Below the pieces are notes generated by a model that was given only the letters and a program-made list of their open reading frames with translations, ran no database searches and was not told the origin of the DNA. From Tubiluchus corallicola (taxonomy: Eukaryota > Animalia > Priapulida): 64,000 nt of DNA. The position numbers and the translations under genes were made by a program. The stretch lies in assembly GCA_030141605.1 (NCBI GenBank), contig JAQGDQ010000514.1, positions 62,001-126,000 of the forward strand, in the 5' to 3' direction. Position 1 is the first letter of the stretch; every line of letters starts with the position of its first letter. Positions 22,401 to 64,000 of this stretch are shown in pieces.

Positions 22401-23301
22401 TTGTTTTCTAAGGTTTGAAAGAGTAATGGTGTGTTCTTAAACTATAAATTGTGATAAAGAGATTTTGATCCAAAGCCATTCATTATCTAGCATTTAGAAA
22501 CTTAGAAACACACATTATACTAGAGTGTAACGTGCAGTGTCATGACAGTGCATCAGCTGGTTGTATGAAAATGCACAATGGTACACAACCAATGATCGCC
22601 AAAGTCAAATACTCTTCTGTTAACATGAGAGTATTACAAGCTATTTTTACTGACAGGCACTCACCCAGTCTAAGTTCCACAGATGAATTTTCTTATTATA
22701 TTGCAGAGAGCTTATAGGCCTAGAGAAGTAATTTGCCAATCTCGTGGGTAACTCTTCAACTTCAGCAAAAGCACATAAGTTGCCGCATAATAGCAATGGA
22801 TTTAATGTCAACTTCTCAAAAACTAAGTTTAAGAGGATAATTTTCTGACTACCTTTCTAATTTTCAGCACTTGGGAATAAGAGGAATAAACTAAATTGCT
22901 ATCAGTTAAAGATTTAACCTAGTTTCCACTCTCAGACTTTATTGTACAGCACTTTATATAATTCAAAATTTTTTGACTCTGATTCAAGGGAGTGAGGCAA
23001 ATGCTTTTGTACCTTTATTAATTGAAAATTTAGGAGACAACATGTACCTTTTCCCAGTACCTGTGTAATTAAAAATCTCTTTTAGTATATAATACTGTGC
23101 ATTTTTATAATTCGTTAAAAGTTTTTTGCCTCGAAAGTTTTTATTCATTGTACCACCATCATTTCATAATTTTCATATAAAATTTAAATTTCAAAATAAA
23201 ATGCTGTCTTGTGAACATTCTAAAGCAAAAAATTACCATTTCTGCCTTCCCTGAAAGTCAAAGAATCCCGGCTTTGACACATTGCATGGACCAACTGTAG
23301 C
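19428..23301 (-). CDS. ACBD6: Acyl-CoA-binding domain plus ankyrin-repeat protein (ACBD6-like); first coding exon not found in window
   Basis: Minus-strand GT-AG exons 23237-23301 (ATVGPCNVSKPGFFDFQGRQKW), 22135-22237 (DAWKKLEDMSREEAMQEYV), 21546-21734 (KTVFDWVVDGN), 20775-20864 (DMALLHWACDRGH), 20157-20187 (DGDDQTPLHY), 19428-19567 (ASSCDHTDIVKLLMRHHAD...stop). Phases are consistent. Confidence 0.93.
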
Positions 23302-24122
23302 CTAAAAATGTACGTGACAAAAACAAAATTTTACAGAAACACAGCTAAGGCAAAACTTATTTTCTAAAAAATGTACATGGGTGGTTTATAACCTTTTGCT
23401 AGGAGGATACAAATACCACAAGTAACAGTACAGTTATCTTTGCATCAAAGTATTGCTGGAACAATAAAGAATCTATCATGTCCTCACAATTTAGTGTGGA
23501 AGCTTCTCGTTTCAAACACGCCCTCCAAACTTGAGCCTATGATCGATGCAGTGGCACGAAAACTCTGGGATTAATTTTTTGTGAACAAAGCTGAATTGCA
23601 TGGCAATTTACAGCATTTCAAACCCAAAAAACACATTTGAACCATCTTCAAAGTTAGAGGGGATACTAAGATGATATAAAAGAGACATTGATCAATACTC
23701 AACCGACAAGCTCGGCAGATATCTGCAAGATGTGTTGGAGGATCTCTTAGTCCTTCAAGTCGCTGCTCCAGTCACATCCTTCAAGACTGCAGGTCATTTG
23801 TTTCAGCAGAACTTTGATGCAACAAATTGTAATGTAATATTACTTGTTGTTTTTGTACCTCCCTAACAAACAGGTTAGGTACCACTCTATATTTTAACCA
23901 GAACAGTTATGCCTTTAGCAATACGTAACTCGTTATGCTTCGTTCCAGTTACGTATTGCTCAGTGCGAATATACTGTAGAAGCAAATCCCTCTACAGTTC
24001 TGCAATGAATAATTAAGTCTAGTTTTCCAATGTGTCGCCTTTGTCTATAGATTTAGTAGGACGATCATTTGGGTCACTAAGCACTGAAATTGGCTATTTA
24101 AACAATGCTGCTCCATTATTTA

Positions 24123-24708
24123 GTTACTATTTGAGCCACGTACACGTCTTTCTTTAGATATTTGGCAATAGTTTCACGAAAGTTACATTCATTACAATGG
24201 AGAACGGTGGGATGATGACAGCCATATTAGTAAGTGTAATATACAGTTACTATTTGAGCCACGTACACGTCTTTCTTTAGATATTTGGCAATAGTTTCAC
24301 GAAAGTTACATTCATTACAATGGAGAACGGTGGGATGATGACAGCCATATTAGTAAGTGTAATATACAGTTACTATTTGAGCCACGTACACGTCTTTCTT
24401 TAGATATTTGGCAATAGTTTCATGAAAGTTACAACAATGGAGAACGGTGGGATGATGACAGCCATATTAGTAAGTGTAATATACAGTTACTATTTGAGCC
24501 ACGTACACGTCTTTCTTTAGATATTTGGCAATAGTTTCATGAAAGTTACAACAATGGAGAACGGTGGGATGATGACAGCCATATTAGTAAGTGTAATATA
24601 CAGTTACTATTTGAGCAACGTACACGTCTTTCTTTAGATATTTGGCAATAGTTTCATGAAAGTTACAACAATGGAGAACGGTGGGATGATGACAGCCATA
24701 TTAGTAAG
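24123..24708 (+). repeat. Tandem array of the 123/117-bp unit, 5 copies
   Basis: Unit GTTACTATTTGAGCCACGTACACGTCTTTCTTTAG...GCCATATTAGTAAGTGTAATATACA starts at 24123, 24246, 24369, 24486, 24603. Confidence 0.95.
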
Positions 24709-25281
24709 TATTTTCCGCTAGTTTGATGTGACCTCAGATTTAAGACCACCATTACCAAAGCTTATTTTAATTTCCACATAATAATCATAATAGTTGTACT
24801 CTTGATTTATGAGCACAATTAGCAAAGCTCATTTTAATTTCCGCATAATAACCATTAATATATTTATTTGTAAAAAAAACACTACGTAATTGGGACGTAA
24901 TAACGAGATTAGGTGAGAGCATTAGGGCGAGAAAAAAATCCCTTCTAATTGTAATTTAAGAAGAGTTGTTTCCGCGAATGAAAAAGACCATACGTGTTCG
25001 TTCGTTTGCTCAGTGGCACCACAGTGGACGCTCCGAAATTTGGGGTAAGTGTAATTTTATTCTTTAGCGTGTTTTTAGTTTTATAATGACACTTTATTGC
25101 TTTTTCAATAGCAAAGCAATAGACTTTAATTACATCATAATTCGTGTAAGTGAAATTCTTCTTTGCAATAACGTGTGCACACGAGAATTCCATGCTATAA
25201 CGTTTGAATAGCGTTAATTATTTTCTTACAGAATACAGCTTTATAAGAATCAACAAACACCGCTATATCGTCTTAATCATC

Positions 25282-25477: not shown

Positions 25478-26367
25478 ATAAAACTACTGAAAACTTTTGG
25501 GGGACGAAACAAAACGCCCGAAGTAGCTGGACAGAAACTCCAACTGAGTTGACTTATACAGAGTGCAAAAATCTAAAATGGCCTAACAAGGATTTCAGTT
25601 TTCAATATCATTGGTGTGGCTCGGCAGACTATACTACATATTGATGTTATTTTAAAACTGGGTTCGTTGACATGACTCATGGGGGACTTCCCTTTATCGA
25701 CCTAGGAAATATCGGTCATTGCTTATACACCACCGGACGATGTGCAACACCCGAAAATCTCTGGGTGCAATGGACAGTTAATCCATCAACCCTTAAAGAA
25801 TTTCTTCCAGTTGGTACTATGAATGCTTCCATTTCAAAAGGGATGATTATGATTCCTTCGCTCCAAGAAGCTTATGCCTTTGACCCTTCCGTAAACTTAT
25901 CACTTAATTTAAGAATTAATACAACTTCTGAATTTGCCTTTGACATATTAAAAATATATTCTAAGCCTAATAATCAAAAAATATTTCCCACTGTTGATGC
26001 CTTGGCAAAACGAATTGAATCAGTTCGAAATGAAATTCTTGGTAAAATTCAATACTTGACCGAAAAAATCTCAGGACCAATAACTGAAGTAAATGAAATG
26101 TGTCGACTGTCAAAACTTTCTTCAAATCTAATTCTGTCATTAGCAACATTGAGTCCTTCTTTATACATTAGAAACATCCTTCAAAATCCCTTTCTTATTG
26201 CCCAAATATCTGGAAGTTTTGTATCGTCCATCCCTGTCAAAAGGTTTACGATTATACACTTAATATAGAACAGAAGACCTGTTATCGGGAAATCCCGATT
26301 ACTTACAGGCTCACTGTGGGAGGAACAGACTATACAGGTTACCTTGATCCCAGAACTGACACAATCA
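25478..26367 (+). pseudogene. EVE: Mononegavirales class III (rhabdo/lispi/nyami-type) glycoprotein fragment, variant 1
   Basis: TTENFWGTKQ and QYHW (bipartite fusion-loop-like), HCLYTTGRCAT, LATLSPSLYIRNILQNPFLIAQISGSFV, then after a frameshift PCQKVYDY...TCYREIPITY...GYLDPRTDTI; one internal stop. Confidence 0.7.
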
Positions 26368-26469
26368 GCAAGTTCTTAGACTTTCTAATTCAGAAATGTA
26401 AGTCATCACTAATATTTCATTTCACACAATTTTGCTTCTTGCAAATATTTGTTTCGGCGTCAATTCCTG

Positions 26470-26995
26470 TAATGTCCCAATTGCCCCCGGCAGATCATTC
26501 TATCGATATATATAAAGGGCAAGGACTACTATACACAGGACAAATAGCGGACTACAGGCCCATCTACATGGCCACGGGCGCTCTTCTGGAATGGATGAGC
26601 TCAATGGATTTGGAAAAAAGTATAATGGCCTCTTTGTTTGGCGGCTTGGATGCATGCACAATAGATGTAAGATTTTTGGGGCCATTTCATTGGCAATTAT
26701 TGAATACGTTCACGGTTCACGTGAATTGCGACTGTTTAGGAGCTAATGCACGAATTTTATTGCAGAAATGAGAAAAACTTTTCCAAACAACATTGGAAGT
26801 ATTCAATTCGAACATAGATCACAAAATTCGATTTGCTATTAGAAAAATTTAGGAGGATTTTTTACCACGACACGGGTTGACAAACGAAATAGAGTGTCCA
26901 TTGACGTCGTTAGCCGTGGTAGCAGTGGCCGTGGCAGAACCAGCACCTTTCGAATCGCCGTTCTCGATTCATCTGGGCAGAGGGAATTATGTTTT
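26470..26995 (+). pseudogene. Unassigned disrupted ORF X (second copy 31665-32175)
   Basis: Long reading frame PPADHSIDIYKGQGLLYTGQ...EPAPFESPFSIHLGRGNYV broken by stops; no family recognised. Confidence 0.4.
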
Positions 26996-27140: not shown

Positions 27141-27175
<35 letters not shown>

Positions 27176-29019: not shown

Positions 29020-30505
29020 CACTCTCTTTCAATAGAGGTGGGGACAATCACTATCTCTTTTTTCAAGGAATACTATGCAACATTATTAGCAATGTCATAA
29101 TCAATGAATATTATCAACCAAGTGGGAGAAATTATAGTCATTATCATTTTGTAGACTATGATTGTATTATGAAAATCAATGAAGAATTCCTGACAACAAG
29201 CCAAGACTTTGTATCGTCTTATTCCAGAGATGAAGCACAATCCATACACCTTTATTCCAGAGATGAAGCACAATCCATACACCTTTATTCCAGAGATGAA
29301 GCACAATCCATACACCTTTATTCCAGAGATGAAGCACAATCCATACACCTTTATTCCAGATATGAAGCACAATCCATACACCTTTATTCCAGAGATGAAG
29401 CGCAATCCATACACCTTTATTCCAGAGATGAAGCGCAATCCATACACCTTTTTTCCAGAGATGAAGCACAATCCATTCACCTTTATTCCAGAGATGAAGC
29501 ACAATCCATACACTTTTATTCCAGAGATGAAGCACAATCCATACACCTTTATTCCAGAGATGAAGCACAGTCCATACACCTTTATAGATAGAAAGAAGGT
29601 GATCATTTCAATAAATCCAATTATGAACATTTTCAGGACTCGACCACCAATAGATGGATTGAATGAGGAGAAATTAAATGCAATTGCTTCAGTGAGAGTT
29701 GGAATAAATTCAATCCGAGAATCATCAGAAATCTATGAGATGCAAGAAGAATTGATGGAAGACTCTAAGGGAGGAGAAACGTACTCGAGTTTCTTACCAC
29801 CAAATCCTTTTGGAATTCTTCTCGGAGGAGCCCTTCAAATAATTGGATGGGCAACAATCAAGGAATTAAGACAGGCGAATCCTTCACTTGCTCACTTAGA
29901 GAAAAATATAATAGAAGTTCTCTTAACCAACACACGAGTCATTGGACATGCGTTCCATAAGTTGTTTGTACACTCAAACATAAGGAGAGAAATATACTCA
30001 TGTTTTGAAGTAGCAAATCCTCCCAAATCAACCCCTTTCAAAAGAAGCGAAACTCAAACAACACTGGTTTCCTATATGAGATTTCTGTTTTCTGAGTTAT
30101 TGAAAGGAAATGTTCCCAACTACTTAACAACAGAAATTCAATTGATTTTCAAGTCATTATCAGTTTCTGTAGAAAGTGAGATTGTAAAACATCCTAGAGT
30201 TTGGAAAAATGAATTATCTGTTCATCCACTATTTGGAAGGAACCAGAGAAAATTGGGAGAAAGCAATCATTGTTTGTGATGCTGAATATTCATTGTCAAA
30301 GGATGAAGTGAAAGATATGTTTGCAATTCAAGAAAACTTAATAAAGTTAGCATATTGGACTCAAGGATCTATTTTGGTGAAGTTTTACTTCAATTCACAA
30401 GAGTTACTTGATAGTTATATGGGAAGATTATTAACATGTTTTCAAAGAGTATCAGTCTTAACATCTATATTCTCCCCTTATAATTCAACAGAATTTTTTT
30501 CTTTT
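29020..30505 (+). pseudogene. EVE: Mononegavirales L protein fragment (end of capping domain and connector)
   Basis: RGGDNHYLFFQG...HYHFVDYDCIMKINEE...NPYTF matches the G..NY...FQ...HYH....CI..I.E...NP pattern of L proteins; frameshifted. Confidence 0.65.
29221..29583 (+). repeat. 33-bp tandem repeat x11 (IPEMKHNPYTF) inside the L fragment
   Basis: Unit ATTCCAGAGATGAAGCACAATCCATACACCTTT. Confidence 0.97.
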
Positions 30506-30509
30506 TTGT

Positions 30510-30859
30510 GAACATCCAACTGATTTAACCTATGCAGAATGTGAAAATTTGAAATGGCCAAACAAGGATTTTAGTTGCCAATATCATTGGCGTGGTACAG
30601 GAGATGATACCACCTACTCTTGTTATTTTAAAACTGGATTTGTTGATATGACTTATGGAGGAGTTCCATTTAGTGACCTTGGAAACATTGGTCATTGTCT
30701 CTACACAACTGGGAAATGTGCTACTCCAGAAAACCTCCTCGTAGAATGGATTGTCAATCCATCAACTCAAAAAGAATATTTACCAGCTGGAATTATGAAT
30801 GCCTCCATCTCAAAGGGTATGATTATGATCCCTTCTATCCAAGAAGCATAAGCATTTGA
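30510..30859 (+). pseudogene. EVE: class III glycoprotein fragment, variant 2
   Basis: LKWPNKDFSCQYHWRGTGDDTTYSCYFKTGFVDMTYGGVPFSDLGNIGHCLYTTGKCATPEN; aligns to 25540-25880 with many third-position differences. Confidence 0.7.
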
Positions 30860-32571
30860 GCGTACATGTCCTGCTGTATAGTAGTCCTTGTATTATCCCT
30901 ATACAGCGGTATAGGGATGGCACTGTTAAATGAGTCACCTCAAGCCACAGCAACAGCTTGGAATGTGGCATGAAATAGATTGGGAAGTAGACAAATTCAC
31001 AAACCTACAACTTTGTACAACAGTTTTCTCCAGGAACATTTCTAAATGCACAATGAGTCAGACAGCCTGAATGCACCATGACTAGTTTGTGGTGCCAGTG
31101 GTGCAGACCGCTAAGATCTCATCTAATTAGGTAAATTCTTTAAGAAATTATTAAAAATCTGAAGTCTGTTATAGGTCAAGTTGTGTGAGTCTGATTCATT
31201 GGACTGTAAGTGTGTGCAGTTAAAATTTTTGTAATCTGTTTTACATTGACACTTTGGCATAATGTTAAAGCTACTAGAACAGCTACTATAAAAAATTAAG
31301 GCAATGCTTTGGCGAAAAACTATAGTAACTTAAGCAGAGTTTTAATGTTTGACTCTCTCTCTGTGTGTGTGTGCACTTAAAATAAATTTCTTTAGTCTGT
31401 TTTACACTGACACTTTCACTTAATGCTTAAGCTATTATCACTTAACCGTGAAAAATTAAGCCAATTCTCTGGTAAAAAACTATAGTAACTTTAGCAGAGT
31501 TTTAATGTTTGACTATATCATGCTGTTTAAATGATCAGTATTCATTATTTTCCTACAGAATTTGACTGAATTTAAATTGCAAGTGAAAAGACTTCTTTCA
31601 TTTACAATTCCGTGGGAAAACATTTCGCTGCAGCAAGATGATGCGATAATTATGATAATGATGAGCCCCCGGCAGATCATTCTATCGATATATATAAAGG
31701 GCAAGGACTACTATACACAGGACAAATAGCGGACTACAGGCCCATCTACATGGCCACGGGCGCTCTTCTGGAATGGATGAGCTCAATGGATTTGGAAAAA
31801 AGTATAATGGCCTCTTTGTTTGGCGGCTTGGATGCATGCACAATAGATGAAAGATTTTTGGGGCCATATCATTGGCAATTATTGAATACGTTCACGGTTC
31901 ACGTGAATTGTGACTACCTGGGTTCTAACGCTCGAATGTTATTGCAGAAATGAGAAAAAATTTTCCAAACAACATTGGAAGTATTCAATTCGAACATAGA
32001 TCACAAAATTCGATTTGCTATTAGAAAAATGGAGGAGGAATTTTTACCACGACACGGGTTGACAAACAAAATAGAGTGTCCATTGACGTCGTCAGCCATG
32101 CTAGCGGCGGCAGTGGCAGAACCGGCACCTTTCGAATCGCCGTTCTCGATTCATCTGGGCAGAGGGAATTATGTTTTTTTCTTTTTCTTTTTCTTGAGAA
32201 ATAAAATTTTTAAACATTGCCATTGATTATTTAACGGCAACAAAAGTGCATTTTAGACTTCTGCACACTCGTTGTCTAGATGTAGATCTTTCAATAAAAT
32301 TCCGCTAATGCAATTTAAGAGTGTTGATTTATATATATATATATATATATGACTCTAATAAAATACTCACGAGCCATTATTTTCTTACAGAGTTTGAGTA
32401 AATAGAAACAAATGCGAATATACTGTAGAAGCAAATCCCTCTACAGTTCTGCAATGAATAATTAAGTCCAGTTTTCCAATGTGTCGCCTTTGTCTATAGA
32501 CTTAGTAGAACGATCATTTGGGTCACTAAGCACTGAAATTGGCTATTTAAACAATGCTGCTCCACTATTTA

Positions 32572-33048
32572 GTTACTATTTGAGCCACGTGCACGTCTTT
32601 CTTTAGATATTTGGCAATAGTTTCATGAAAGTTACATTCATTACAATGGAGAACGGTGGGATGATGACAGCCATATTAGTAAGTGTAATATACAGTTACT
32701 ATTTGAGCCACGTACACATCTTTCTTTAGATATTTGGCAATACTTTCATTAAAGTTACATTCATTACAATGGAGAATGGTGGGATGATGACAGCCATATT
32801 AGTAAGTGTAATATACAGTTACTATTTGAGCCACGTACACATCTTTCTTTAGATATTTGGCAATACTTTCATTAAAGTTACATTCATTACAATGGAGAAC
32901 GGTGGGATGATGACAGCCATATTAGTAAGTATAATATACAGTTACTATTTGAGCCACGTACACATCTTTCTTTAGATATTTGGCAATAGTTTCATGAAAG
33001 TTACATTCATTACAATGGAGAACGGTGGGATAATGACAGCCATATTAG
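32572..33048 (+). repeat. Tandem array of the 123-bp unit, 4 copies
   Basis: Units start at 32572, 32695, 32818, 32941. Confidence 0.95.
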
Positions 33049-34564: not shown

Positions 34565-35620
34565 CTCGCTTTCAATAGAGGTGGGGACAATCACTATCTC
34601 TTTTTTCAAGGAATACTATGCAACATTATTAGCACTGTCATAATCAATGAATATTATCAACCAAGTGGGAGAAATTATAGTCATTATCATTTTGTAGATT
34701 ATGATTGTATTATGAAAATCAATGAAGAATTCCTGACAACAAGCCAAGACTTTGGATCATCTTATATTCCAGAGATGAAGCGCAATCCATACACCTTTAT
34801 TCCAGAGATGAAGCGCAATCCATACACCTTTATTCCAGAGATGAAGCACAATCCATACACCTTTATTCCAGAGATGAAGCACAATCCATACACCTTTATT
34901 CCAGAGATGAAGCGCAATCCATACACCTTTATTCCAGAGATGAAGCGCAATCCATACACCTTTATTCCAGAGATGAAGCACAATCCATACACCTTTATTC
35001 CAGAGATGAAGCACAATCCATACACCTTTATTCCAGAGATGAAGCACAATCCATACACCTTTATTCCAGAGATGAAGCACAATCCATACACCTTTATTCC
35101 AGAGATGAAGCACAATCCATACACCTTTATTCCAGAGATGAAGCACAATCCATACACCTTTATTCCAGAGATGAAGCACAATCCATACACCTTTATTCCA
35201 GAGATGAAGCACAATCCATACACCTTTATTCCAGAGATGAAGCACAATCCATACACCTTTATAGATAGAAAGAAGGTGATCATTTCAATAAATCCAATTA
35301 TGAACATTTTCAGGACTCGACCACCAATAGATGGGTTGAATGAGGAGAAATTAAATGCAATTGCTTCAGTGAGAGTTCGAATAAACTCAATCCGAGAATC
35401 ATTAGAAATCTATGAGATGCAAGAAGAATTGATGGAAGACTCTAAGGGAGGAGGAACGTACTCGAGTTTCTTACCACCAAATCCTTTTGGAATTGTTCTC
35501 GGAGGAGCCCTTCAAATAATTGGATGGGCAACAATCAAGGAATTAAGACAGGCGAATCCTTCACTTGCTCACTTAGAGACAAACATTATAGAAGTTCTCT
35601 TAACCAACACACGAGTCATT
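34565..35620 (+). pseudogene. EVE: Mononegavirales L fragment, copy 2
   Basis: Same sequence as 29020-29943, in frame across the repeat (ORF 34463-35716). Confidence 0.65.
34765..35260 (+). repeat. 33-bp tandem repeat x15
   Basis: Same unit as 29221-29583. Confidence 0.97.
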
Positions 35621-36114
35621 AGCAAAGCTTATTTTAATTTCTACATAATCACCATTAATATATTTCTTTGTAGAAAAACAGTACGTTATTTGGAGTGTAA
35701 TAACGTGATTAGGTGAGAGCATTTGGGGGAGAAAAAATCCCTTCTAATTACAATTTAAGTATGGGGTCGTTGGCTCGCTATTTTCAAAATAAAAGAGATC
35801 TTTAGCGAATGAAAAACACCATATGTGTGTTCGTATGCACTGTGACAGCAGCGTGGAAGCTCCAAAATTTACAGTAAGTGTACTTTTATTCTTTAGCATA
35901 TTTTTAGTTTATAATGGTACTTTATTGCTTTTTTCAATAGCAAAGCAATAGACTTTAATTACATCATAATTCGCCTAAGCGAAATTCTTCTTCTTTTGCA
36001 ATAACGTGTGCACACGCGAATTCCATGCTATAACGTTTGAATAGTGTTAATTATTTTCTTACAGAATACAGCTTATAAGAGATCAGCAAACACCCGCTAT
36101 AACACGTGACCATC

Positions 36115-37696
36115 ATGGACCCACTCCGCATTTTCAGGTGCCAGGTGCTAGTGAGAAGATTAGACATTGCCACCTGTGATATATGCGGGCGGGTCTGTCG
36201 TAGTATGAGAGCTATGCAGAGACACGTCACGATCGATCATTATGGCCACGAAAGAAACTTTCTTTGCCACGTGTGTGGTCATACGGTCATGACGCAATAC
36301 GGTCTACGCTCTCGTCTACTACGGAGACATCCAGCGTGACGACAGCGGCGACAGCAACAACAATAACAACAACAATGACAACAACAGCAGCATCAAAATG
36401 GTGGCCGAGATGGCGGCGACGATGATGATGATGATGGGCCGTTTTTGTGTGAGCAATGTGGGCTGCTGTTTCACACAATGGCAGCTTTAGAGAGGCACGC
36501 CGCACAACAGCAGCGTGGCGACCAAGATGGCGATGATGATGATGATGCTGATGAAGCTGCTGGTGGGACGTTTTTGTGTGGCCAATGCGGCATGCTGTTC
36601 CACACAATGGCAGCTTTAGAAAGCCATGGCCCACAACAGCAGCAGCATCAAAATGGTGGCCGAGATGGCGGCGATGACGATGATGATGATGCTGATGCTG
36701 GTGGGCCGTTTTTGTGCAGCCAATGCGGCATGCTGTTCAACACATTGGCGGCTTTAGAGAGCCACGTCACACAACAGCAGCAGCAACAAAATAGCGACGA
36801 CATGGATGATGATGATGATGCTGATGCTGGTGGGTCGTTTTTGTGTGGGCAATGCGGCATGGTGTTCCACACATTGGCGGCTTTAGAGTGGCATGCCACA
36901 CAACAGCAGCAGCAACAAAATGGTGGCTGTGACGACGACGGGCCGTTTTTGTGTGGGCAATGCGGCATGGTGTTCCACACATTGGCGGCTTTAGAGAGGC
37001 ACGCCACACAACAGCAGCAGTAACAAAATGGCGCTCGAGATGGCGACGCCATGGATGATGATGATGATGATGCTGATGCTGGTGGGTCGTTTTTGTGTGG
37101 GCAATGCGGCATGGCGTTCCACACATTGGCGGCTTTAGAGTGGCACGCCACACAACAGCAGCAGTAACAAAATGGCGCTCGAGATGGTGACGCCATGGAT
37201 GATGATGATGATGCTGATGCTGGTGGGTCGTTTTTGTGTGGGCAATGTGGCATGGCGTTCCACACATTGGCGGCTTTAGAGTGGCACGCCACACAACAGC
37301 AGCAGCAACAAAATGGTGGCTGTGACGACGACGGGCCGTTTTTGTGTGGGCAATGCGGCATGGTGTTCCACACATTGGCGGCTTTAGAGAGGCACGCCAC
37401 ACAACAGCAGCAGTAACAAAATGGCGCTCGAGATGGCGACGCCATGGATGATGATGATGATGATGCTGATGCTGGTGGGTCGTTTTTGTGTGGGCAATGC
37501 GGCATGGCGTTCCACACATTGGCGGCTTTAGAGTGGCACGCCACACAACAGCAGCAGCAACAAAATGGTGGCTGTGACGACGACGGGCCGTTTTTGTGTG
37601 GGCAATGCGGCATGGCGTTCCACACATTGGCGGCTTTAGAGTGGCACGCCACACAACAGCAGCAGCAACAAAATGGTGGCTGTGACGACGACGGGC
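36115..37696 (+). pseudogene. Zinc-finger array with poly-Q/poly-D linkers (2 C2H2 plus about 10 CxxC...H units)
   Basis: Repeated FLCGQCGM.FHTLAALE.HATQQQQ units; CAA>TAA stops in the poly-Q tracts; GC-rich relative to the host DNA. Confidence 0.8.
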
Positions 37697-38600
37697 CATA
37701 TCTAATGGAAAGGCATGTCACAGGAAAGGTACTTGAGTTAGGTGGAGGCGCTGGAGGAGGAACCCAATGGTTGGTCACCCAGAAGAAAGTTAAAGAAGTG
37801 ACCACTCTATGCTTTGATAGAGAGGGACATGGCCGCCATCGATTGGGGGAAGAGAGAACTAACGGCTATGAGAAAAGCCACCTCCATTATTTTTCGACGT
37901 CTGTCAATTACCTTTAATGTTTCAGCGGAAGTTGGATGGCAGGTCAATGCGGCCAGTTGCATTAGCGGTAAAACGTTTAAAGGTAAGCAGGAAATTTACA
38001 CTATGTAGATTTTTTAGTTAGCAAATAGATAGGTATCAAATTAGCGATAAGATATTGAGGCAGCTGTTTTAACTGTTTCGTCGTTTTGAAGTTATTTATT
38101 TATGTTGCAACTATAGCCTGAGGGAAAATACGACTGGCTAGTGTCAGATATAGGTGAAACAAAAACTCAATTTGACTACCAAACCTTATATTCCCGTAGA
38201 AAGAGAGAAAACTTTGACCGGATATTAACAAAAGACAAACCAAAATTAATAGTCTATAAAGAGTTAAGCCCGGGTGATTACAAGCTTGAGGAGTTTGTGA
38301 ACAAATGGGGCTTGCGTGCTGTTAAGTTGCCTTATACTAGGAACTCCGGCACGGAATTCTACTTAGTCAATTTTGGGGAAGGCATGGAATACAGAGAAAT
38401 GGCTAGGGTGGCCACTGAGCTGATGACTCGGATGAGAGTTATGGGACCTCCTATTACAGTAATGGAGAGTGAGAAAGAAATCAAAGAGGAATATTATCAC
38501 CAAAGTAAACCAGACCCAAACAGGAGGAATCCACTTAAAGCACCAGACTAGACACTAACCATAGAAAACCTCAAATTCAAGTATAATGTCAGACCTCCTA
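37697..38600 (+). pseudogene. EVE: orthoflavivirus-like NS5 methyltransferase, split by an insert (about 37877-38116)
   Basis: GKVLELGGGAGGGTQWLVTQKKVKEV...EGH, then YDWLVSDIGE...YKELSP...KLPYTRNSGTEFYLV, paralleling flavivirus GKVVDLGCGRGGW, CDIGES and RVPLSRNSTHEMY. Confidence 0.85.
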
Positions 38601-43458: not shown

Positions 43459-43510
43459 GGGTCACTAAGCACTGAAATTGGCTATTTAAACGTTGCTGCT
43501 CCATTATGTA

Positions 43511-47793: not shown

Positions 47794-50733
47794 GGACGTA
47801 TTAAAGGAAACGTTTCATTGCCAACCATGCATAATTGTTGCCATGCCAACCATGCATAAACGACTGCATAAACATAACATAAACATATACATAAACATAG
47901 AACTCCATACACAAAGACGCCTACAAAATATTGAATAGTATAGAATATAGGAACAATTAAACGAACATGTATAAGAGGATCATACCAATGATGTTTTTCA
48001 TTTCTATGGTCAATGGAACGAAGGAAATGAGAAATGAAACGAGAGGAGAAAAAACTCCTACCCTGAGTGCATGCACTGCACTACCTACAATACATAGGCA
48101 TTATACATGCCCAGTTAAGAGCTGTTATGGATCCATGGTTGTTGTGGACCCAACAGTGCCATGTATATACGTTCAGAACTGTAAACCAGGAGAGTATATG
48201 CACTATAATTGTACTTGTGGGAATAAGAAAGCTGATTACTGCACACATCAGAGTGCCAAATATTTTCAGGATATGACGTGCCAAACTCCTTATGATGATT
48301 TAAATGGGATTGGAAATGACCCAACCATATGTTCAATTGGAAGTAAAAAACTCCAAGATTGTGAAGAGGAGAATAGAAGAGAAGAATCTATCCTGTATGT
48401 AAGTGATTTATGCATAAACATATGCATAAACATATCATCTTTAGCTACCGGGTCTTTACCAAACAATTTTCATCAGCATCACACTGACTCACAGTCACTA
48501 GTAAACACTTTAAACTGTCTTCCCTAATCAATGATGGTAATTCGATGAAAACCTTTTATTTTTCCATATGAATGCGAGTCGCTTGTACCTTAATTAAAAT
48601 TTCATCACAACAGATCCTTCCATAGTTATTTATTTATTGATATTTTTTACAGAGCTTGTACCTTGTGAGGAGAGTCTGGAAGGTTTTGACCTCAGCTGGG
48701 ATTCGACTGAGCAGAACTCAGAAGCAGGTGTTTCTACAGTAACCAGTGAACCAGTAAGCGAATTCAAGTGGTGTATGGTGAGTACGAACAGCCAACGATG
48801 TTTTAGCACTTTGTCCATCTCATTTCTCGAGATGAAAATGTGTTAGACATTTTTAATTATCAAATACAGACATATATAAACATAAAATTCACACTAATTT
48901 ATGAAAGAATACATTACATTAACTATTTGGACAATTCATTATTCTTCTGGCTTTTCATAGTCTGCGTTTTATACAGAAGTGGATATGAAATAATGGCACT
49001 CACTTTTATAGCATATGTTTACTTTATGTACCGATGTGACACATTCATGGGTATGGTGTTAGTATTCATAGGTTGGTCAATTAACACAACAATGGTGACT
49101 ATTGGCATCCTCATGATGTTAGGTATCACTAATCATTTAGTGGCAACAGTAAATGAAGCAATAGCTAGGGTGTACTACAAGAAAAGGACAAGAGGGTACT
49201 ACAATAAGCATGATCTGGTATATATGATCATGATGCTCTTACTTCCTATGGAGATGCACAGGATCCTTTCAACATTATGTTATTCGGCTCTCACGTACTT
49301 ATTGGATCTGTAGAAAAAGTGATTGATGGTGAATTAGAACTTAATACCATTCTCTACGACGCTTTTAGATCCGGCCCTCATGGAATTCTCCACGCTATCT
49401 TTAGGACAGTTAAATTAATTTATAACATTTTATTTGGTGATAGCGACGAAATTCAACATAGCTCACAATGGTATCCTTATTTTAAACAAAAATTGACTGA
49501 TTTAATATCCAAAGGTAAATCAGGCTCACGTTCTGCCGTTGAATGGACCACCTGCTTTCTCCTACTAAAAGTGCTACCTAAAATTGCAAAATGTGGCTTT
49601 CATGTTTATGATTATATTATGGACTCTCACGACCAACATCAAGGGATAAAAGAATTTTTTAACTTTTTGGAAACTGAAGACAGCCGTGAAATGTTGCAGC
49701 GCTTTTTGAAACAAGGCACAGTAGGGCTTCTTTTTGATCCGGATGATTTTAAACAATGGCAAGAAGATAACAACATCATAGGTCAAGTTCCACATTGTTC
49801 TGTAGGAATTTTGGGTAACATAATCGATTTATTTGAATCTTTTGAAACTAGTGTAGAGCAAATATTCTTCTCTCCAAAAATTCACAATGCTGTATTGGAT
49901 CGCGAACAAGCTAAGCAAGTTCCCAAATGCAAAAACCCCACCTCTCGTATTTCCGCTTTAAAATATGTTAGTTGTGCTTCTGTCCCTGTAATTGACCCTC
50001 TGGATTATCCTTCTGTCCCTTTTAATAGCGCCACTCCATTCCTCCATGCGCTGATGAGTCTACTGCCACTACGTAAGCTGCCTTTAATAATGTAGAACAA
50101 CTATGCTTAAAGACACCTGAATTGGTGCGTAGTGGCCTCGAGAAGAAAAATTTAACTATATCACACAAAATTCTTTCTGGGTACAACGTAATTTAGATAA
50201 AAATTTCCCGTTCTTTAGAGATTTCGATGAAGAAGAAAGTGTAATTAAGCCCAAGTATGTAAAAGTCTTCGACGCCACGCCAGGCCGTGGCGGCACCACA
50301 CAATACATATGGCAATCCACCCTTAATGCTGACATTCATTTCTATCAGGACCCTCAAGATAAATGGCCCATTGACATTCCTGTCAACCTATACGGTTTGG
50401 CCGTATTGCTGTACGGGAAAAATGCATTTTTGGCCCAATACGGCTTACAAGAAAATCCATACGGCGAAAAGAAAAATATACGGCAAAATCAAAATGTTGC
50501 TCAGCGAAAATAATCGCATCGAATATTCCCTTTTCGATCGGTACTTTCATGCAGACGATCTTACTTCCGTTCAAACGTCGTCATTGCGCACACTCAGCTA
50601 ATAATTTTTAACATCCGGTTAACCACTTCCGCTATTTCATTCGTGAGAAAAAACACGGCAAGCGAACGTGTTCCTCCAGCGAAAAAGCAAAAAACTGGAA
50701 CTGGACGTCATTTAAAAGAATGGGAGAGCCAAA

Positions 50734-52248
50734 ATGCTTATTATACCTTCTTAGTTATGCTTGCTCTCTCTACTTCCATTCATGGAACTATTGTAAGTGT
50801 GAACAGTATCATCCCTCAACTGTCTCAGGAGGCGATTTACAAGCACCAAGACGTTTTAGCGTCATATGGGATTATCATCACTGATCCCAAGCCCATTGGG
50901 TATCAAGTATCCCAATCTTACAAGATAATAAGAGTAGAAATGTCCAAAGCATGGAACATTCACTACCAGCTCTTCAATGATCCAGAAAATGACTACCCCT
51001 CCAAGGCCAACCATCGAGATAAAAGATTCCTAGGAATGATTGTAGCCGGTGCTGCGATGGCAGAAGCCACTGCAGCCTTAGCATTGGGGGCAACCAACAG
51101 GGCCGAAATTAATGCCCTCAACAGGAAAATGAGTGAGTTAAAAAACAACCAAGATATGATGAACCACGAGCTGACTGTAGTAAATAAGGAAGTTGGCATT
51201 TTAGGACATGACCTGGAAGAATTGGAACGACTTGTTGGTAATGTTGACCATAACGTCCACAAGCTTATGCAGGCCCATGCAAAAGATATGACTCAGCTCC
51301 ATGAATATCTAAATTCAGTTAGGTATGGACATGGATTGAGATCTATAACATCGTCTAAGATAGATCCACTCCTCATAAGCCCGACTCAATTTAATCTTCT
51401 CATGTCTAATCCCAACTGCAGTGTCCCTTTGTCCTATGGTGCAAGCAGAGCAATAGTAATCAAATCAGAACCGGAGAGGTTGTGGATGTTGGTTAATGTG
51501 AGAGAGATCATTCAATCACCAAGCAGAGTGCATGTCAAAACCAAAAATGGTCCCCATAGTTAAAGGGGGCACTTGGGTGATTCATGGGGCTCCATTTGAC
51601 ATGATTTTGGACCTCAAGAGTATTAAGATTATTCCCCCTGGGTCCTGCCAGGACTTCAACGTGATTGTATGCTCTGATGACCTAGAGACACAACCATTTG
51701 ACCAGTCTTTAAAGTATGAAAGATCTCCTGAAAATTGGGGTATTGTGACCTTAATGGGGGGTTGGATAGTCCAGAAGCAAGCCAGTTATCAACTTAGAAC
51801 GGTCTTCACTCATTCAGGGGCCTCTGAGAGGACAATACCCAAAAATTCCAGCCTTGTTTTAACGTGTAAGAAGATCCTAGAGTACCACTTACCTGGTTAC
51901 TTACTTCGATGCAGTGACACTCTGCATAGGCTGAAAAGCTGGATCCCAAGATTAGAAAGCCATAATTTGACAAGCTATACAGATGAGATCAATGTCCTAA
52001 TAAATAAGACTCATGCTTTACTCATCTCTCATCATGAAATTGAACCTCTCAGCTGGTATGAAGACTATTCATCTGCTAGAGACTGGTTATGGTTGATATC
52101 AGTAGTAACTTCTGTTGAGGTTAACCTGTTAATTATTTGGATTATATACAGACTGGTAAAGATTCGAGTTAAAAACCGCAAAATGATCCAGGGTGAAGAG
52201 GTAGAAATGCAAGAATACAACAGTAGAAGATCAGAAGATCAGCCCTAG
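50734..52248 (+). pseudogene. EVE: near full-length paramyxo/pneumo-like F protein (copy B)
   Basis: Signal peptide, RDKR/FLGMIVAG cleavage and fusion peptide, heptad repeat, Cys-containing core, TM (WLWLISVVTSVEVNLLIIWIIY) and tail; 1-nt loss just after the ATG and one frameshift near 51530. Confidence 0.85.
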
Positions 52249-52310
52249 CTACTCTTTAGAACATGGAACAATTCAGCTTGCTAGTCATATCCCCATTAAT
52301 CGCTTCACTT

Positions 52311-52340
52311 TTTATCTTGTAAAAAAATGAAGTCAAAATG
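52311..52340 (+). promoter_or_regulatory. Mononegavirales gene-end/gene-start junction (F to L)
   Basis: TTTATCTTGT-A7 (52321-52327), one T, then GAAGTCAAA-ATG. The same GAAGTCAAA-ATG precedes F at 54013-54024. Confidence 0.75.
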
Positions 52341-53132
52341 ACTTATGAGAGACACCTCAACTCACCTCTCAGCCTGGAATTTGAGAATGCTTTTATATTT
52401 GATATACATCACAAAACTCCAACAGAAGTAGCCAAAATTTGGGCTCTTGGACCTCCAGGAAAATGTCAATATCTGGATTACTTGAAAAAAGTTTCTCAGG
52501 AAATCAAGATCAGCCCTCCAGAACCTCTAGCGAGTTACCAGCACTCTAGGATGATGGAGAACTGCAATTCCTTTTTTTGGAAAAGAAAGAAGTCACCCAC
52601 TGAAGGAGAAGCCACCGACCAATCCAGGAGAGAACCTCCACAGAAGGAGGAATATGAAATCAAAGAGATTAAACTTGGGGACATGGCAAAACCCGCTACA
52701 GAGCTACAACATGCTGAGGAAACAATTGCGAGATATGCCAAGAGCTATCTGGCCGGCAAATATGAACATATTCCTCCACGACTTAGCATTGATATCAGTC
52801 TACTTCAAAGAAGACTGCTGCTAGAAAAGATCAGCAGCATTTTTGCCAACTCATCTGTAGCCAACAACAATCCGATTTTAATCAAAATTAATTCGAATCA
52901 TGTCTTCCACTTGTTGGGCCATTCTCTATTTGAACACCGCCGTGATAGTATAATTGTAACACATGTCAGTCATTTCACGGGGGGACTAGATGCAGCAATT
53001 TCTCGACTTACTGTCAAAATCTTACATGCTCTGCTAGATCAAGAAGATCAATCAGAGAAGCGCAATGTTATAGAAGAGTTCATAGAACTCATTCATAAGC
53101 ATATACTTGTTCCCATAAATCTCAGAAAATAA
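52338..53132 (+). pseudogene. EVE: Mononegavirales L polymerase N-terminus
   Basis: Starts MTYERHLNSPL (cf. conserved L N-terminal HL[D/N]SP[I/L]); directly downstream of F and the junction; 264-aa open frame. Confidence 0.72.
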
Positions 53133-55330: not shown

Positions 55331-56475
55331 ATGCATTGAACACGACTATCTTAAGAACATAGCTGACACTCAAACTCTTTACCATCATGATAAATTTTCA
55401 AATGTCCTTGATAATTTTGATTTCGTGATCTGTGACTCTATCGATTTTCTCCACCTTCGGGCCATTTCTAGCAACGATTATATTTCGAAGTGTGAAGCAA
55501 AAGTTAAAAATAAAGGCACCTTTTAGTTTAGTATTGGGTTAGAACAAATTAAAAACTTAAATATTTTAAAATTAAATTTACAAACACTACAAATTTCACA
55601 TATCTCCTAACGTTAAAGCAAATCAAGTTTATATTTTCCTCCAATGTTCTGAAAAATTAGATAACAAAGAAGGTTTAGTTGCTTGGTCCGCTTGGTATCA
55701 ATTCATACATTTTGTTGTTCGTTATCGCATGTACGCTGTAGAAAATGCTTTTAAACGTAAAATGAAACAATTGACGTTAGCCCATCCTATTCTTTCTAAA
55801 GTTAAAGATAAGCCTTGCCACTACACAACCTTCTCCCCTACCCTAACGTCAGACCGCTTTGAAACCATGTTTGAATGTAAGCATAACAAGCTCAAAAATA
55901 ACCATCGCCTTAACCGTATCGAAGCAATTTTGAACGATAATAAATTTTAGAAATCTGCTAGCAAACTCCAAAATTTAGAATATCTTAACGTAGAAGACGT
56001 TAAGAAAGGATCCCGATTATGCCCAAGAAAATTAAGTAATCAAATTGTAATAGCAAAATGGAACACCGAAAAATCAAAAGTATCTGATGATTCAGTTTTA
56101 GTAGCCGACTTTTTAGGAAATTTAGTTAAGAAAATTACCGGCGCTGATCCGTTTAACACCCCTGTAGTACAAGTATCTAAAAACGCAACCTTAGTTCATT
56201 CTGCTGTAAGAGACCGCTTAGACCATCCAAATAAGCAATTATCTGACGAACAAATTACTCAACTCTTAGACGCTGCAGAATACGTATGTATGCCTCCATC
56301 CCACCCTATCAAAATTGCAACCTGGGATGAATTAGGACATTTAATCAATAGACAAGGTGCTTCCGGAATGTTAGACGATTGTCAAGATTTAGGAACTCTT
56401 TACGACCGCCCTGGCACTCGCGAAGTTGTAGAACGTATAATTAACGATTTGCAAAAGTTCCAATTTTACCAAGGT
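55331..56475 (+). pseudogene. EVE: pestivirus-like/large-genome flavivirus NS5B RdRp N-terminal region
   Basis: TWDELGHLINRQGASGMLDDCQDLGTLYD...VVERIINDL parallels pestivirus NS5B WEQLEAGINRKGAAGFLE...LVEQLVRDL; upstream frame largely open. Confidence 0.7.
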
Positions 56476-58048
56476 TGACTAAGGGAGACATAGTGATTAG
56501 TCCAAGACTAAAAGTAGGATGGTTTACATATTATGTTGATTGTAGTTACCAGGGTAGAGTTGAGAGAGTAGAAGCAAACGGAATTGTGCGGGTTAAGTTT
56601 CCTACTACAGTACACGGAGACAGTGGGCAACCCATATACATGGAAACAGAAAGAGGAAACGTGTGTGTGGGTTGCATTGCATACAGTAGCAATTTGAATG
56701 GAGACATGGTAGAGGAAACGATAGCAACTGAAACTCACGGAATCTCAACTAAGGTAGAGCAGGGAAAGATACGAATTGTAACATCTTATTGTGGGAGTGG
56801 TAAAACTAGAGAAAAGATTCCATCTTGTTTGAAAAGTAGGTCTATTGGACAGAAAGCATACATACTAGCTCCTGACAGAGTAGTAGCACGTGAGAATTAC
56901 GAATCCTTGAAGAAAGTGCTAAAAGAGAAAATAGCATTGAGGACATCAGATGCTAATCCAGAGGAAAGAAAGATGATATATTTTTTGTTATGCAGTTGTC
57001 ATAATGAATGTTAAGACTTAGATTTAACAGAAATTTGTGGTATTTTAGGGAGGTGCTGCCATCTTTTGGCTGTAAAATTAATTTACCTATTTCTTAAACT
57101 GTTTACTGTACAATCTATTTACATACCATTTACTGGGTTTCAACTAAAGTTAATGAGCTGTAACAGGAGTCCTGGCTATTGTATGTTGGTCAGTAGTAGT
57201 TCAGGTCTCATAGTCTGCTGGTGAATAATGTAATTGGTGAATTTCATAATGTAGTTTGTCAAGGTATGTTGCTTTAAATTATATTTTGTGGTTTTTTTAT
57301 TTTGCTAAACTGAGAGGTTAGTGCTTTAATTTTTGTTATAGTGTGTTAAACTTAAGTGAATTATTAAGCTAAACTTCCCTAAATGTTGCTTTTGCTTTTA
57401 TTTCAGACGGCAATTTATGTTGAAACCTACCCCCCCCCCTCTACACAGGCTTCACTTCTTCATTTTTTTGACAATAAAGAAATCAACCTACCTGTATCAA
57501 AGTGTTCATCATTTTTATTGGATTACAACATGCAGACAGACAAACTGAACAAAACAGCCAGGACCCTGTAAAATCGAGGTAATGGCCCATGCAACAGCCT
57601 TAAATCGATATAGGAAGGAGAAATTGAACTTTAGAAGCTCATTGACCATCATAGATGATGGGCATTATAATAACGAAGAAACCGTGGCATTAGTATCCAT
57701 AGTCATGTACAGTGCAACATCAAAGGACATGATGGCCACAGCCACAAACCAGCCAGTGGAGCGCATGGAGATGAATGAAAGGGAAGTTAAAAACTATGTT
57801 AACGAGCAAGTAGAAGCCAAGATATTGTGGATAGTACCAGGCAACGTGAATAGTAAAGCAAAAGAAGTGAAAGGTTGGTACAAGGACAAAATAATAGTGT
57901 TGGATAAGCACAATATAGAAAACCTGAACCAAGCTAAAAATCTTGCGACAGGCATGGGGATAAGCACCAGCATATGTGAGTGTGGTGCTAACTTAAATCC
58001 TGACATCGTCATTGTACTCAAACTAATTACCCTCCAGTAACAGAAGGT

Positions 58049-58200
58049 ATTGAGACTGGAAGATGGGCAAGGATAAAAAGAGAGGACAGGCTATGCTCCT
58101 GTTCTGGCTTAAACGTACAAACAGAAGAGCATGTTATCTGTTTTTGTCCACTTACGAATCACCTTCGTGAACATAACACTGAACTGAGCTTCAACGAATT
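58049..58200 (+). mobile_element. LINE ORF2 C-terminal CCHC fragment
   Basis: IETGRWARIKREDRLCSCSGLNVQTEEHVICFCP. Confidence 0.75.
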
Positions 58201-59078
58201 TTTTAAGACGAATTTTTTAAGCTTTATTTACGAACAATGTTTTCTTGTGCTTCAAAATATGACATTGCCTAAGTGTACTACAATCAATGTCCGCCATATT
58301 CCAATAAAATATTGTAGCGTTTTATATGTCATTTCTATTGAAAAAAATAAAAAAGCTATTTTACAAATTTGCATTAAATTCTGTAGTTCTAGACCCTACT
58401 AAACACAAACATTAAGTAAACCTAATTTGGTAATTTTACTAATTTATACTATGTAACACATTATTTATACTATGTAACACGTTCTATCAAATTATAAGAT
58501 TGTCATTAAGTAAACTAAATGTTCAAGGTGATCAGTTCAATCAAAATGATACAAAATGATGTATTTACTTACATCGTACGTCTCCATAAAGCAAATCGAG
58601 TATTTACCAATATATCTGACAAATTATCACTATCATACTGTGAAAACTACTATTAAAGAAGCCTGTTAACGTCTGCCAACTAACTCGCTTGCCCAGGTAA
58701 AAACAGATCTGTACAGGTGAGTGATCGTGGTCACGTGACCAACGAGATACTTAGCGAAATTCACTACAGTCATTGATACTCAAACTAATTACACTCCAGT
58801 AACAGAAGGTGATGTAGATGTGATTTTGCAGGAAAGACCCACTAGTAGGGCTAGCCAGGTTCAGAGAATAGGTCGAGGAGGCAGAAGGAAGAAAGCCACT
58901 TATGTAACGATTGGGCCAAGAACTAGACCACAGACGAGATTTTTCCCATCAGATACAGCCATGTGGGATGGCATAGCCATCTTACTGGCTGAAGACACAG
59001 AGGCTACACTACTGCAATATGTATGGTGAGGAAGAATGCACATTGCATAGTGAGCGGAGTTTAGAATTCAAGAGATTA

Positions 59079-61030: not shown

Positions 61031-61261
61031 TACAAATAATTGGAACTATTAAGAAAAGAAAGTTTATCTATATACCCTGATAAGCCTTCTACTAATGTAC
61101 AACTGAGTTCAATTCCTATAAGTTCATTTTCAAACACCTAGTTATTTGTTACTGTATCAATTTCGTTTGATCAGGTCTGCTTATTCATTACCTTTTTGAC
61201 TTCTGTTAACTATTCAGTTAGCGCATAATAGGCTCTGTCCACCACTTGCATCAACATTGGT

Positions 61262-61620
61262 GGCAACATCGCATCATAGCGGATGGAAGACCTGACATTT
61301 GAAGGAAACACAATTTCTCCTCGCACCTGTCCTGGCAACATCGCATCATAGCGGATGGAAGACCTGACATTTGAAGGAAACACGATTTCTCCTCGCACCT
61401 GTCCTGGCAACATCGCATCATAGCGGATGGAAGACCTGACATTTGAAGGAAACACGATTTCTCCTCGCACCTGTCCTGGCAACATCGCATCATAGCGGAT
61501 GGAAGACCTGACATTTGAAGGAAACACAATTTCTCCTCGCACCTGTCCTGGCAACATCGCATCATAGCGGATGGAAGACCTGACATTTGAAGGAAACACA
61601 ATTTCTCCTCGCACCTGTCC
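61262..61620. repeat. 72-bp tandem repeat x5
   Basis: Unit GGCAACATCGCATCATAGCGGATGGAAGACCTGACATTTGAAGGAAACACAATTTCTCCTCGCACCTGTCCT. Confidence 0.96.
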
Positions 61621-62764
61621 ATCTAAAGCACGAGGGATGTGTCTCACCTTTCTGGCTAGCAGACTGACAGTAACTTTCAGAAACAAAAGTGGGTGTTGAG
61701 TTAGTATATGACTCAGTACCTTGAGTTTCAGCATTTGAAACCCTTGATGCTTTATCCATTTTAGAGCTTTCTTTAGATTTTATGCTACCACTCAGATTAG
61801 CAGTACACTTTTTATTGCTTAGACAATCACTTGCTGATGATTTGGAACTTCTTAATCTTATTAGGTAGCTATGAGGCATTAGCTTACTGTTACATAAGTT
61901 TATTAGCGTCTGTTTACTACAGTTCGCTAGGTTCAGCTCAGCTTCATAAATTGTTTGGCGTGGAAAACTTCGAGGCTTTACACCAATAGTAATGGCGGCT
62001 GGAACTATACTCCAGGTTACGGCATACAGCAGTGTCAAGGCCACAACAAGTGCTGTGCAAGAATACTGCCGACGTAAAATTAAAATGTTCTCACCGTATT
62101 TGTTCTCCAAAAACTTCATAAACTTCACTGCCGAAGATTACTTATATAATTTTGCAGGCATCAAAGGTGAGATATCACGTAAAATAATTGTTTTTATTCA
62201 AGTTTGCTAATTTTGTGTGAGCACCAATACTATCAGCATTATTATTTCCTCTTTCCAATCTGGCCTTCCCTGTTTGAGTCACTTGTCATGTTACAATCTT
62301 AAGCTGATGAGCCTACCTCATGTAAAACTGTTTTAAAAAAGAGATTACTTTTACTAAACCATCGCAGATGATGTGACTTTGAAGAAATGTAAAGAAAAGT
62401 TTTAAACATAAAGAAACACACACGTATATGGTCGTTAGCATTGCTTATATTTTTTACATTCGCAACTGTTTTTGCCAATCGCTCAGTGCAGCATGAAAAT
62501 TGTTTAAAAACATAGGAGAATTTAAAACATTGATGAAGCTTTGTATGGTGAAAATATGTTGTAGTTATCACAATACTTTCTCATTGTTAATAAGATCTTT
62601 CAGATCAATGAGTCGTAATATTTACAGTCAGCTAACTATTGGCTATTCCGCAAATGTTTCTTTTTGCATTTTTGTTCAAATTGATTTTTTTTAAATTTTG
62701 ATTTACTGAAGTAGGCAAACTTGAAAAGCCAAGGCTCCTTGGTCTCACTTAAACCATTCACTTC

Positions 62765-63133
62765 ATGAACTTAATTCGAAAAAATTTAGTGCGTCTCCGA
62801 GATGCTGGATGGGACCAAAAACAGATTGAAAACCTTGAGACAGAATTTCATGGTCTGAAGAGAGACTACAGAGACAATGAACCCACCAAGACTGCATTGG
62901 ATACGATGACAGATGACACACCATTCCTCCAAGCTTGGAAGAACTTCGATCGCTACTCTTCCTTGATGGAATTTTCTGGAGGACGTGCAACTCTCTTTCC
63001 GTCAACAGCCACTGTAGAGGCTGACTTTAGCATTGTTGGGGAAATCAAAGATTGCTATAAGCAGAGCATGACAGACTTCAGCCTGGAGGGGTGCCTCCAA
63101 GCAAAACAGTTTTTTGAACTGATGAAAATGTGA
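62765..63133 (+). mobile_element. hAT-like transposase C-terminal (dimerisation) fragment
   Basis: FSGGRATLFPSTATVEADFSIV...KQSMTDFSLEGCLQAKQF. Confidence 0.75.
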
Positions 63134-64000
63134 TAACTGATAGTGATAAGGAGTAACAAAATAAATGAATCAAATGACCTAAACAAAGTGGCCTGATCAT
63201 ATAGCAAGTCCGTGTATTCCACAGATTCTTGCAACATTTGGCAGCATCTATCTAAAATTTAAAGGACTTCATGTGAGCAGACATCTTAAATGCTGCGTAA
63301 GACGATGCAATTAAAGTTTCGATTTAGAGCTGCATCAGAGAAAATTTGTAAAATAATCTAATGTAAATTTAGATCAGTTTGGAAAATCCAAATTGAAATG
63401 CAAAAAACTAGTTCTCATTGGCTGTTCACGTTCAGTAAAGTAGACAGGTTTACAACTTTATACAACAGTTTTCTACAGGAATAGATCTAATTGTAAAATG
63501 AGTCAGACAGCCTGAATGCACCATGACTATTTTGTGGTGCCAGTGGTGCAGACTGCTAAGATCTCATCTAATTAGGTTAATTATTTCAGAAATTATTAAA
63601 AACCTAAATTCCGTTTTATTAGAGCCTTCACGTCTGCCATAATTAGGCTTCTCAGACGTACGCCTAGGCGTATAATTGCTTCATTAAAGGCGGGTTGGAT
63701 AGGTACTAGACAGCTTGCGGAATGTACCCCACCTGCATCAAACACGTTGGATGAATGAATCTAAATGAAATAAAACAATTTTCCATGTTGTTTGAAAAAT
63801 CTTTGTTTTTTTCACAAAAATACGTCTATGTTACAGAAACTCGAAGGCTTGGAGATAAACCAACCAAGACACAGACTGGATGACGAATGCAGACGGGAAA
63901 ATGAACAACAAGCACAACAATAGCAACTAAACCAGCATGCAGAACAACAGCAGCAAGAAGAACAGGCGCAACAACAGGCACAACAAGAGCAACAACATGA

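Follow-up and report, generated by a model that had tools for sequence, protein, structure and literature searches.

The window analysed here, the whole 64,000-nucleotide stretch of Tubiluchus corallicola contig JAQGDQ010000514.1, carries the gene ACBD6 on the minus strand and, to the right of it, a repeat-rich block with virus-like pieces on the plus strand. This arrangement raises the question of whether the block lies within an intron of ACBD6 and is crossed by transcription from the promoter of this gene. It is quite possible, although the claim is made tentatively, that three things hold jointly: the block would lie within intron 1 of an intact ACBD6, it would be transcribed antisense, and it would serve as a one-strand source of PIWI-interacting RNAs (piRNAs). 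Throughout, the exon numbering assumes one exon 1 outside the window.

The ACBD6 gene in the window

The following exons were identified; identities are given relative to P0001, the sole close relative found.

23301-23237, minus strand: ACBD6 exon 2, 65 nt, middle of the ACBP domain, 21/21 residues identical to P0001; right-most exon in the window
22237-22135, minus strand: ACBD6 exon 3, 103 nt, end of the ACBP domain, 31/35 identical
21734-21546, minus strand: ACBD6 exon 4, 189 nt, linker, 52/63 identical
20864-20775, minus strand: ACBD6 exon 5, 90 nt, ankyrin repeat, 30/30 identical
20187-20157, minus strand: ACBD6 exon 6, 31 nt, 9/10 identical
19567-19428, minus strand: ACBD6 exon 7, coding part to the stop, ankyrin repeat, 41/46 identical

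When joined, these six exons gave 618 nt in one open frame whose sole stop was terminal. The splice sites were canonical, since AG preceded all six exons and GT followed the first five. Pfam placed ACBP on exons 2-3 and ankyrin repeats on two later exons, which is the ACBP, linker and ankyrin arrangement of ACBD6. Exon 2 follows a TTTTTAG acceptor in phase 0, opens with ATVGPC and corresponds to positions 33-54 of the 76 positions of Pfam ACBP; its 65-nt size was matched in other genomic loci. The initial annotation had described six intact exons, the right-most beginning in mid-domain after a splice acceptor, and both descriptions held.

The product was identical to P0001 at 184 of 205 residues. 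The named homologue matches were mostly ACBD6, the closest being Priapulus caudatus ACBD6 (54%), and a quick tree grouped the window protein with Priapulus with weak support (Shimodaira-Hasegawa-like approximate likelihood ratio test, 85). A contig of sample X6, presumed to be RNA, was spliced from exon 4 to exon 5 (21545-20863, with minus-strand GT..AG ends). Because this contig was only about 90% alike, its source was likely a relative; samples X5 and X6 shared less than 0.01 of the sequence words. The gene looks alive, being intact and conserved. The identity of exon 2 (21/21), set against that of the linker (52/63), suggests continuing selection on the ACBP domain, which would need exon 1. 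A high-depth interspersed repeat was noted at 20290-20560, within the intron between exons 5 and 6.

Absence of exon 1 and position of the intron

23302-64000, minus strand: putative 3' portion, 40.7 kb or more, of the first ACBD6 intron; neither its donor nor exon 1 is in the window

The initial part of the ACBP domain was absent from the window. An N-terminal profile run against the six frames of the window gave no match for exon 1: the best score (E 3.5) fell in a tandem repeat on the plus strand, and the best minus-strand score to the right of exon 2 was E 31. As a positive control, the exon 2 profile scored E 2.5e-18 in the window. The sensitivity of the profile was measured on held-out first exons, with training sequences of at least 60% identity removed. 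These exons were recovered at E<0.01 in 91 of 91 cases with the last 40 and with the last 20 residues, and in 85 of 91 with the last 12 residues only. The motif [YFWL][KQ]Q directly precedes the exon 2 junction in 91 of 99 homologues, and the pattern [YF]KQ/GT had no match on the minus strand of 23302-64000. Five ATG-to-GT candidates for a short in-frame first exon within 23302-23963 were rejected, as none was ACBP-like and all lay inside a repeat resembling a miniature inverted-repeat transposable element (MITE). Thus, the earlier failure to find exon 1 in the window was confirmed, and the interval 23302-23965, where its presence would have told against the initial annotation, contained none. 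It follows that exon 1, if linked, is more than 40.7 kb from exon 2.

Isoform X1 of Priapulus reads YKQ/ATVGPC across the junction of exons 1 and 2. An AARCAG/GT intron about 54-3581 bp long was present at this position in 22 of 72 loci, all of them metagenome contigs, several redundant, whose shortness favours short introns. The other 50 loci comprised 37 that were contiguous (mRNA or intronless), 10 in which exon 1 ended in GT without an exon 2, and 3 that were unclear. These comparisons indicate that the intron position is old and conserved. Exon 1 and the promoter are probably located beyond 64000 on the same molecule, mainly because exon 2 is fully conserved. Of the proposal that the cluster lies inside intron 1, the absence of exon 1, the conserved intron position and the antisense orientation of the block stood, whereas the location of exon 1 beyond 64000 is a prediction.

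Composition and orientation of the block

23964-64000, plus strand: tandemly amplified mosaic of virus-like, transposon-like and AT-rich pieces, 40,037 bp, running off the window
56445-59030, plus strand: flavivirus-like NS3 helicase in pieces, with foreign inserts between them (Pfam Flavi_DEAD, E 6.7e-8 and 0.0059)
37700-38550, plus strand: flavivirus-like NS5 methyltransferase fragment, interrupted (PDB 2oxt, E 0.0042)
50709-52245, plus strand: gene resembling a class I fusion protein, running over two frames (Pfam Fusion_gly, E 6e-4 and 8e-4; neither reaches the curated cut-off)
25531-26768, plus strand: weak candidate for a fragment of a chuvirus-type glycoprotein (sole match Pfam Monjiviricetes_fusion, E 0.13)
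36100-37700, plus strand: C2H2 zinc-finger repeat array (Pfam), with a copy at 45370-46890

The block began 662 bp from exon 2, in agreement with the earlier estimate of about 660 bp. Of its 40,037 bp, 17,317 bp (43%) were later copies, and 28,380 bp took part in some duplication. In a self-comparison, every listed duplication was direct, and the two inverted pairs were TA runs. Open reading frames (ORFs) of at least 120 amino acids in the non-redundant 22,853 bp numbered 22 on the plus strand and 1 on the minus strand, compared with 0.2 per strand in shuffles; as these ORFs are not independent insertions, the significance of the 22:1 ratio is overstated. None of 56 minus-strand ORFs matched Pfam at E<=0.005. 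These 56 were taken from 64, and the 8 left out came mostly from tandem arrays, 2 of them being scanned against Pfam separately.

Viral matches were counted at E<=0.005, and only three pieces, all on the plus strand, reached this threshold. Because 43% of the block was made up of later copies and only these three pieces matched, the earlier description of 40 kb of viral sequence was overstated, although the mosaic itself is present. The best PDB match of the helicase-like piece to NS3 structures had an E of 0.003. Other flavivirus methyltransferases matched the NS5-like fragment more weakly than 2oxt did, and a second copy of this fragment was located near 46900-47740. The fusion-like gene matched Baculo_F at E 0.071 and had partial copies at 41538 and 54012. 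The possible glycoprotein fragment had a diverged copy near 30500-31950, and a homologue search with it found no relative. A weak match to a mononegavirus capping methyltransferase (E 0.097) was also obtained. Further searches for the viral assignment gave no match against viral contigs, no usable match in the Atlas search with block pieces, no PDB match for the fusion-like ORF or the ORF after it, and nothing further in a scan of the block for stop read-through. The folds predicted for this assignment were too poor (predicted local distance difference test, 57.6 and 36.4), and a fold search with them gave no match. One coiled-coil match of a block piece among representative sequences was judged to be due to chance.

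The density of fragments from several invaders over tens of kilobases, some of them weak matches, and their single orientation (22 versus 1 ORFs) were both as in a unistrand cluster. In layout, the sequence of the block resembles a unistrand cluster of viral fragments, that is, of endogenous viral elements giving rise to piRNAs. Alternatively, the block could be transcribed on the plus strand as kept viral genes, independent of ACBD6. The many long plus-strand ORFs would suit such genes, but stops, changes of frame and foreign inserts interrupt the recognisable viral genes, which makes this explanation highly improbable.

Several smaller features accompanied these pieces. A 34-nt direct repeat (97%; 58015-58048 and 58777-58810) flanked a foreign insert in the helicase-like gene. 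Within this insert, the piece at 58050-58340 resembles, by eye, the end of a long interspersed nuclear element (LINE), and the pieces at 42350-42700 and 62750-63130 look hAT-like; PDB- and Pfam-type searches confirmed neither label. The ORF after the fusion-like gene (start 52338, region 50709-53129) opens with an HLNSPL motif reminiscent of mononegavirus L proteins, a resemblance for which searches gave no support. The inserts at 37880-38117 and 56975-57550 in virus-like genes had plus-strand splice-like signals and T-rich stretches, and they look as if pieces of intron-bearing genes had entered the mosaic in the same orientation. Tandem arrays with 117/123-bp units at 24122-24709, 32571-33048 and 43510-44796 marked the edges of duplicated units. 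Apart from the zinc-finger and 33-bp arrays, long minus-strand ORFs were present only in a 72-bp unit repeated five times almost perfectly at 61261-61620.

The composition of the window was that of AT-rich animal DNA. Its layout was a transporter exon at the left end (plus strand), ACBD6 at 19.4-23.3 kb (minus strand) and the block from 23964 to the end.

34-483, plus strand: amino-acid permease / cationic amino-acid transporter exon (Pfam match), converging on ACBD6

Observations that weigh against an intronic block

The evidence that weighs against this placement of the block concerns the start of the gene, the length of the intron, the signals on the minus strand and the assembly. In P0001, a single Logan contig of 1300 nt, the exon 2 junction is preceded exactly by 52 residues (1-52) that are not ACBP and that had no match anywhere in the window. 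A frame-shifted exon 1 as the origin of this start was rejected, as the ACBP signal in the shifted frames was no better than in shuffles. The 111 homologue matches included no close relative whose exon 1 was canonical. Isoform X2 of Priapulus (P0002, residues 1-34) also has a non-ACBP start at this junction, so an alternative first exon here may recur in the group of P0001 and Priapulus. In addition, the human ACB domain was dispensable for NMT2 protection in the assays described (PMC7046191), and ACBD6 could therefore survive without exon 1.

These data would be explained if the canonical exon 1 had been lost or unlinked and exons 2-7 were expressed from an alternative first exon. The block would then be an ordinary adjoining one-strand cluster with another promoter or driven by read-through from a gene outside the window; read-through is the commonest driver of the mosquito core clusters described (10.1101/2022.08.22.504762). 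However, all 21 residues of exon 2 are identical to those of P0001 with the ACBP motif kept, and P0001 is a single contig. Moreover, isoform X2 of Priapulus exists alongside the canonical X1, and the use of another start therefore need not mean that exon 1 has been lost. Such a rewired gene is considered rather unlikely.

The predicted intron 1 would exceed tenfold the longest observed (3581 bp), although that sample is biased by short contigs. The minus strand of the block was not depleted of donors, acceptors or AATAAA relative to shuffles; AATAAA was mildly raised (30 vs 20.0, z 2.5, one of 24 tests). A larger apparent excess (63 vs 28) was rejected as a signal because 24 of the 63 sites came from one 33-bp tandem unit. 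The arrays of this unit, at 29219-29585 and 34765-35262, place these 24 minus-strand AATAAA at a distance of 6-12 kb from exon 2, where they may be fortuitous or may serve to terminate an unspliced minus-strand transcript.

The assembly is least secure where copies are nearly identical, and two pairs in the block were 99.55% (4666 bp) and 99.64% (1922 bp) identical. The junction with exon 2 contained the following features.

23395-23870, no strand: MITE-like interspersed repeat whose terminal inverted repeats are imperfect; it occupies 476 of the 662 bp
23917-23960, no strand: perfect hairpin of 14 bp, stopping 3 bp short of the block

The non-repeat DNA in this interval amounted to only about 186 bp, which counts in favour of the intronic reading. 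The inverted arms of the repeat were 38 nt at 79% and 25 nt at 88%, and its depth was raised in samples X1 and X3; the MITE-like label is the analyst's reading. Among the contigs listed, none spanned 23964, and one X3 contig departed from the window at 23916 with 43 letters unaligned, possibly representing another allele or an empty site. A repeat-rich contig may thus have been misjoined, or the near-identical blocks inflated and the true intron 1 short, or the block may be on one allele only. This artefact would fit the position of the junction beside a multi-copy repeat and the start of the block mid-way through a duplicated unit. It is nevertheless improbable: other copies were 94% or 78% identical, and their differences, spanning 1-22%, exceed what errors of assembly would produce. 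The unit at 23964-24110 also had raised depth in both X1 and X3, although depth is not copy number.

Proposed origin of a piRNA precursor

If the block lies in intron 1, the ACBD6 promoter, probably located beyond 64000, would transcribe across it antisense to the fragments. The initial annotation regarded the ACBD6 pre-mRNA as a ready-made precursor, and this was overstated, since in the published cases piRNAs come from exons or unspliced isoforms and not from excised introns. In the hamster C12orf45 case described, which also speaks against the reading proposed here, piRNAs came from exons and the read-through region, not from introns (PMC11615739). For mouse pi-1700016M24Rik.1, 85% of piRNAs mapped to introns and were attributed to a long unspliced isoform (PMC7782496). 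It is for this reason that an unspliced isoform is proposed: the precursor would be a transcript of exon 1 and the adjoining intron that ends inside the block, not an excised intron. This transcript would compete with splicing to exon 2, which would give the normal ACBD6 mRNA.

Antisense transcription had also been offered as the explanation of the strand bias. This part was also overstated: transcription alone does not orient insertions, so selection or a duplication mechanism must do so. In the proposed scheme, selection would retain antisense fragments, and tandem duplication, in which orientation does not change, would later multiply them and carry the bias to the copies.

The same bias could arise in intron 1 with no piRNAs at all, if sense insertions were selected against or if a few chimeric insertions facing the same way had been multiplied in tandem. 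The later copies (43% of the block), the direct orientation of all duplications and the poor performance of excised introns as piRNA sources agree with such an origin, as does the antisense bias of intronic LINEs and long terminal repeat elements that was ascribed to purifying selection in mammals (PMC3088655). Against this, pieces of three or more unrelated kinds (flavivirus-like, fusion-like and zinc-finger) face one way with little spacer between them. Fragments of cytoplasmic RNA viruses have no obvious reason to harm splicing in the sense orientation only. An intronic block that yields no piRNAs is accordingly regarded as unlikely.

Comparison with known systems and significance

Flamenco-type clusters are dedicated non-coding loci directed against retroviruses and do not lie inside a housekeeping gene. 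The known one-strand piRNA clusters that are driven by host genes lie mostly downstream of genes or in a 3' untranslated region (UTR). The block shares with the Drosophila flamenco-type unistrand clusters a one-strand array of antisense invader fragments (PMC10643416).

The closest parallels described are the Aedes core piRNA clusters, which hold tens of kilobases of mostly antisense non-retroviral viral fragments, with contents that vary by species, under host-gene promoters. Read-through from an upstream gene drives most of them, and three Ae. aegypti core clusters are embedded in expressed genes (10.1101/2022.08.22.504762). Most of these clusters come after the end of a gene, whereas the block of the window, known from sequence alone, would be situated between exon 2 and the missing exon 1. 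In the mammalian piC-DoG clusters, a host promoter likewise gives an antisense precursor across packed transposon fragments, but the clusters are downstream of the gene, and in the case described introns yielded no piRNAs (PMC11615739). The pachytene piRNA gene pi-1700016M24Rik.1 corresponds to the model proposed here, as the intron region of a long unspliced isoform gives most piRNAs beside spliced isoforms with a short first exon. Such genes with long first exons or unspliced isoforms are mammalian testis loci and not arrays of RNA-virus fragments (PMC7782496). In the koala, according to a commentary, koala retrovirus A (KoRV-A) in the 3' UTR of MAP4K4 was captured by the host gene and triggered antisense piRNAs; this is one retrovirus in a 3' UTR, compared with a 40-kb mosaic in a putative intron (PMC12264075).

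In the titles and abstract openings of the literature searched, which did not extend to subscription journals or preprint supplements, no viral-fragment cluster in a first intron was described. The block is a plausible variant of the antisense viral clusters driven by host genes, and the reading is cheap to test. It is conceivable, though doubtful, that one promoter gives either spliced ACBD6 mRNA or an unspliced antiviral piRNA precursor, that a first intron of more than 40 kb acts as a trap for RNA-virus fragments, and that a single splice decision sets the heritable antiviral output. If true, a first-intron cluster would add a route in which the choice of splicing, and not failed termination, makes the precursor, and it would extend viral-fragment clusters to a little-studied, priapulid-like group of animals.

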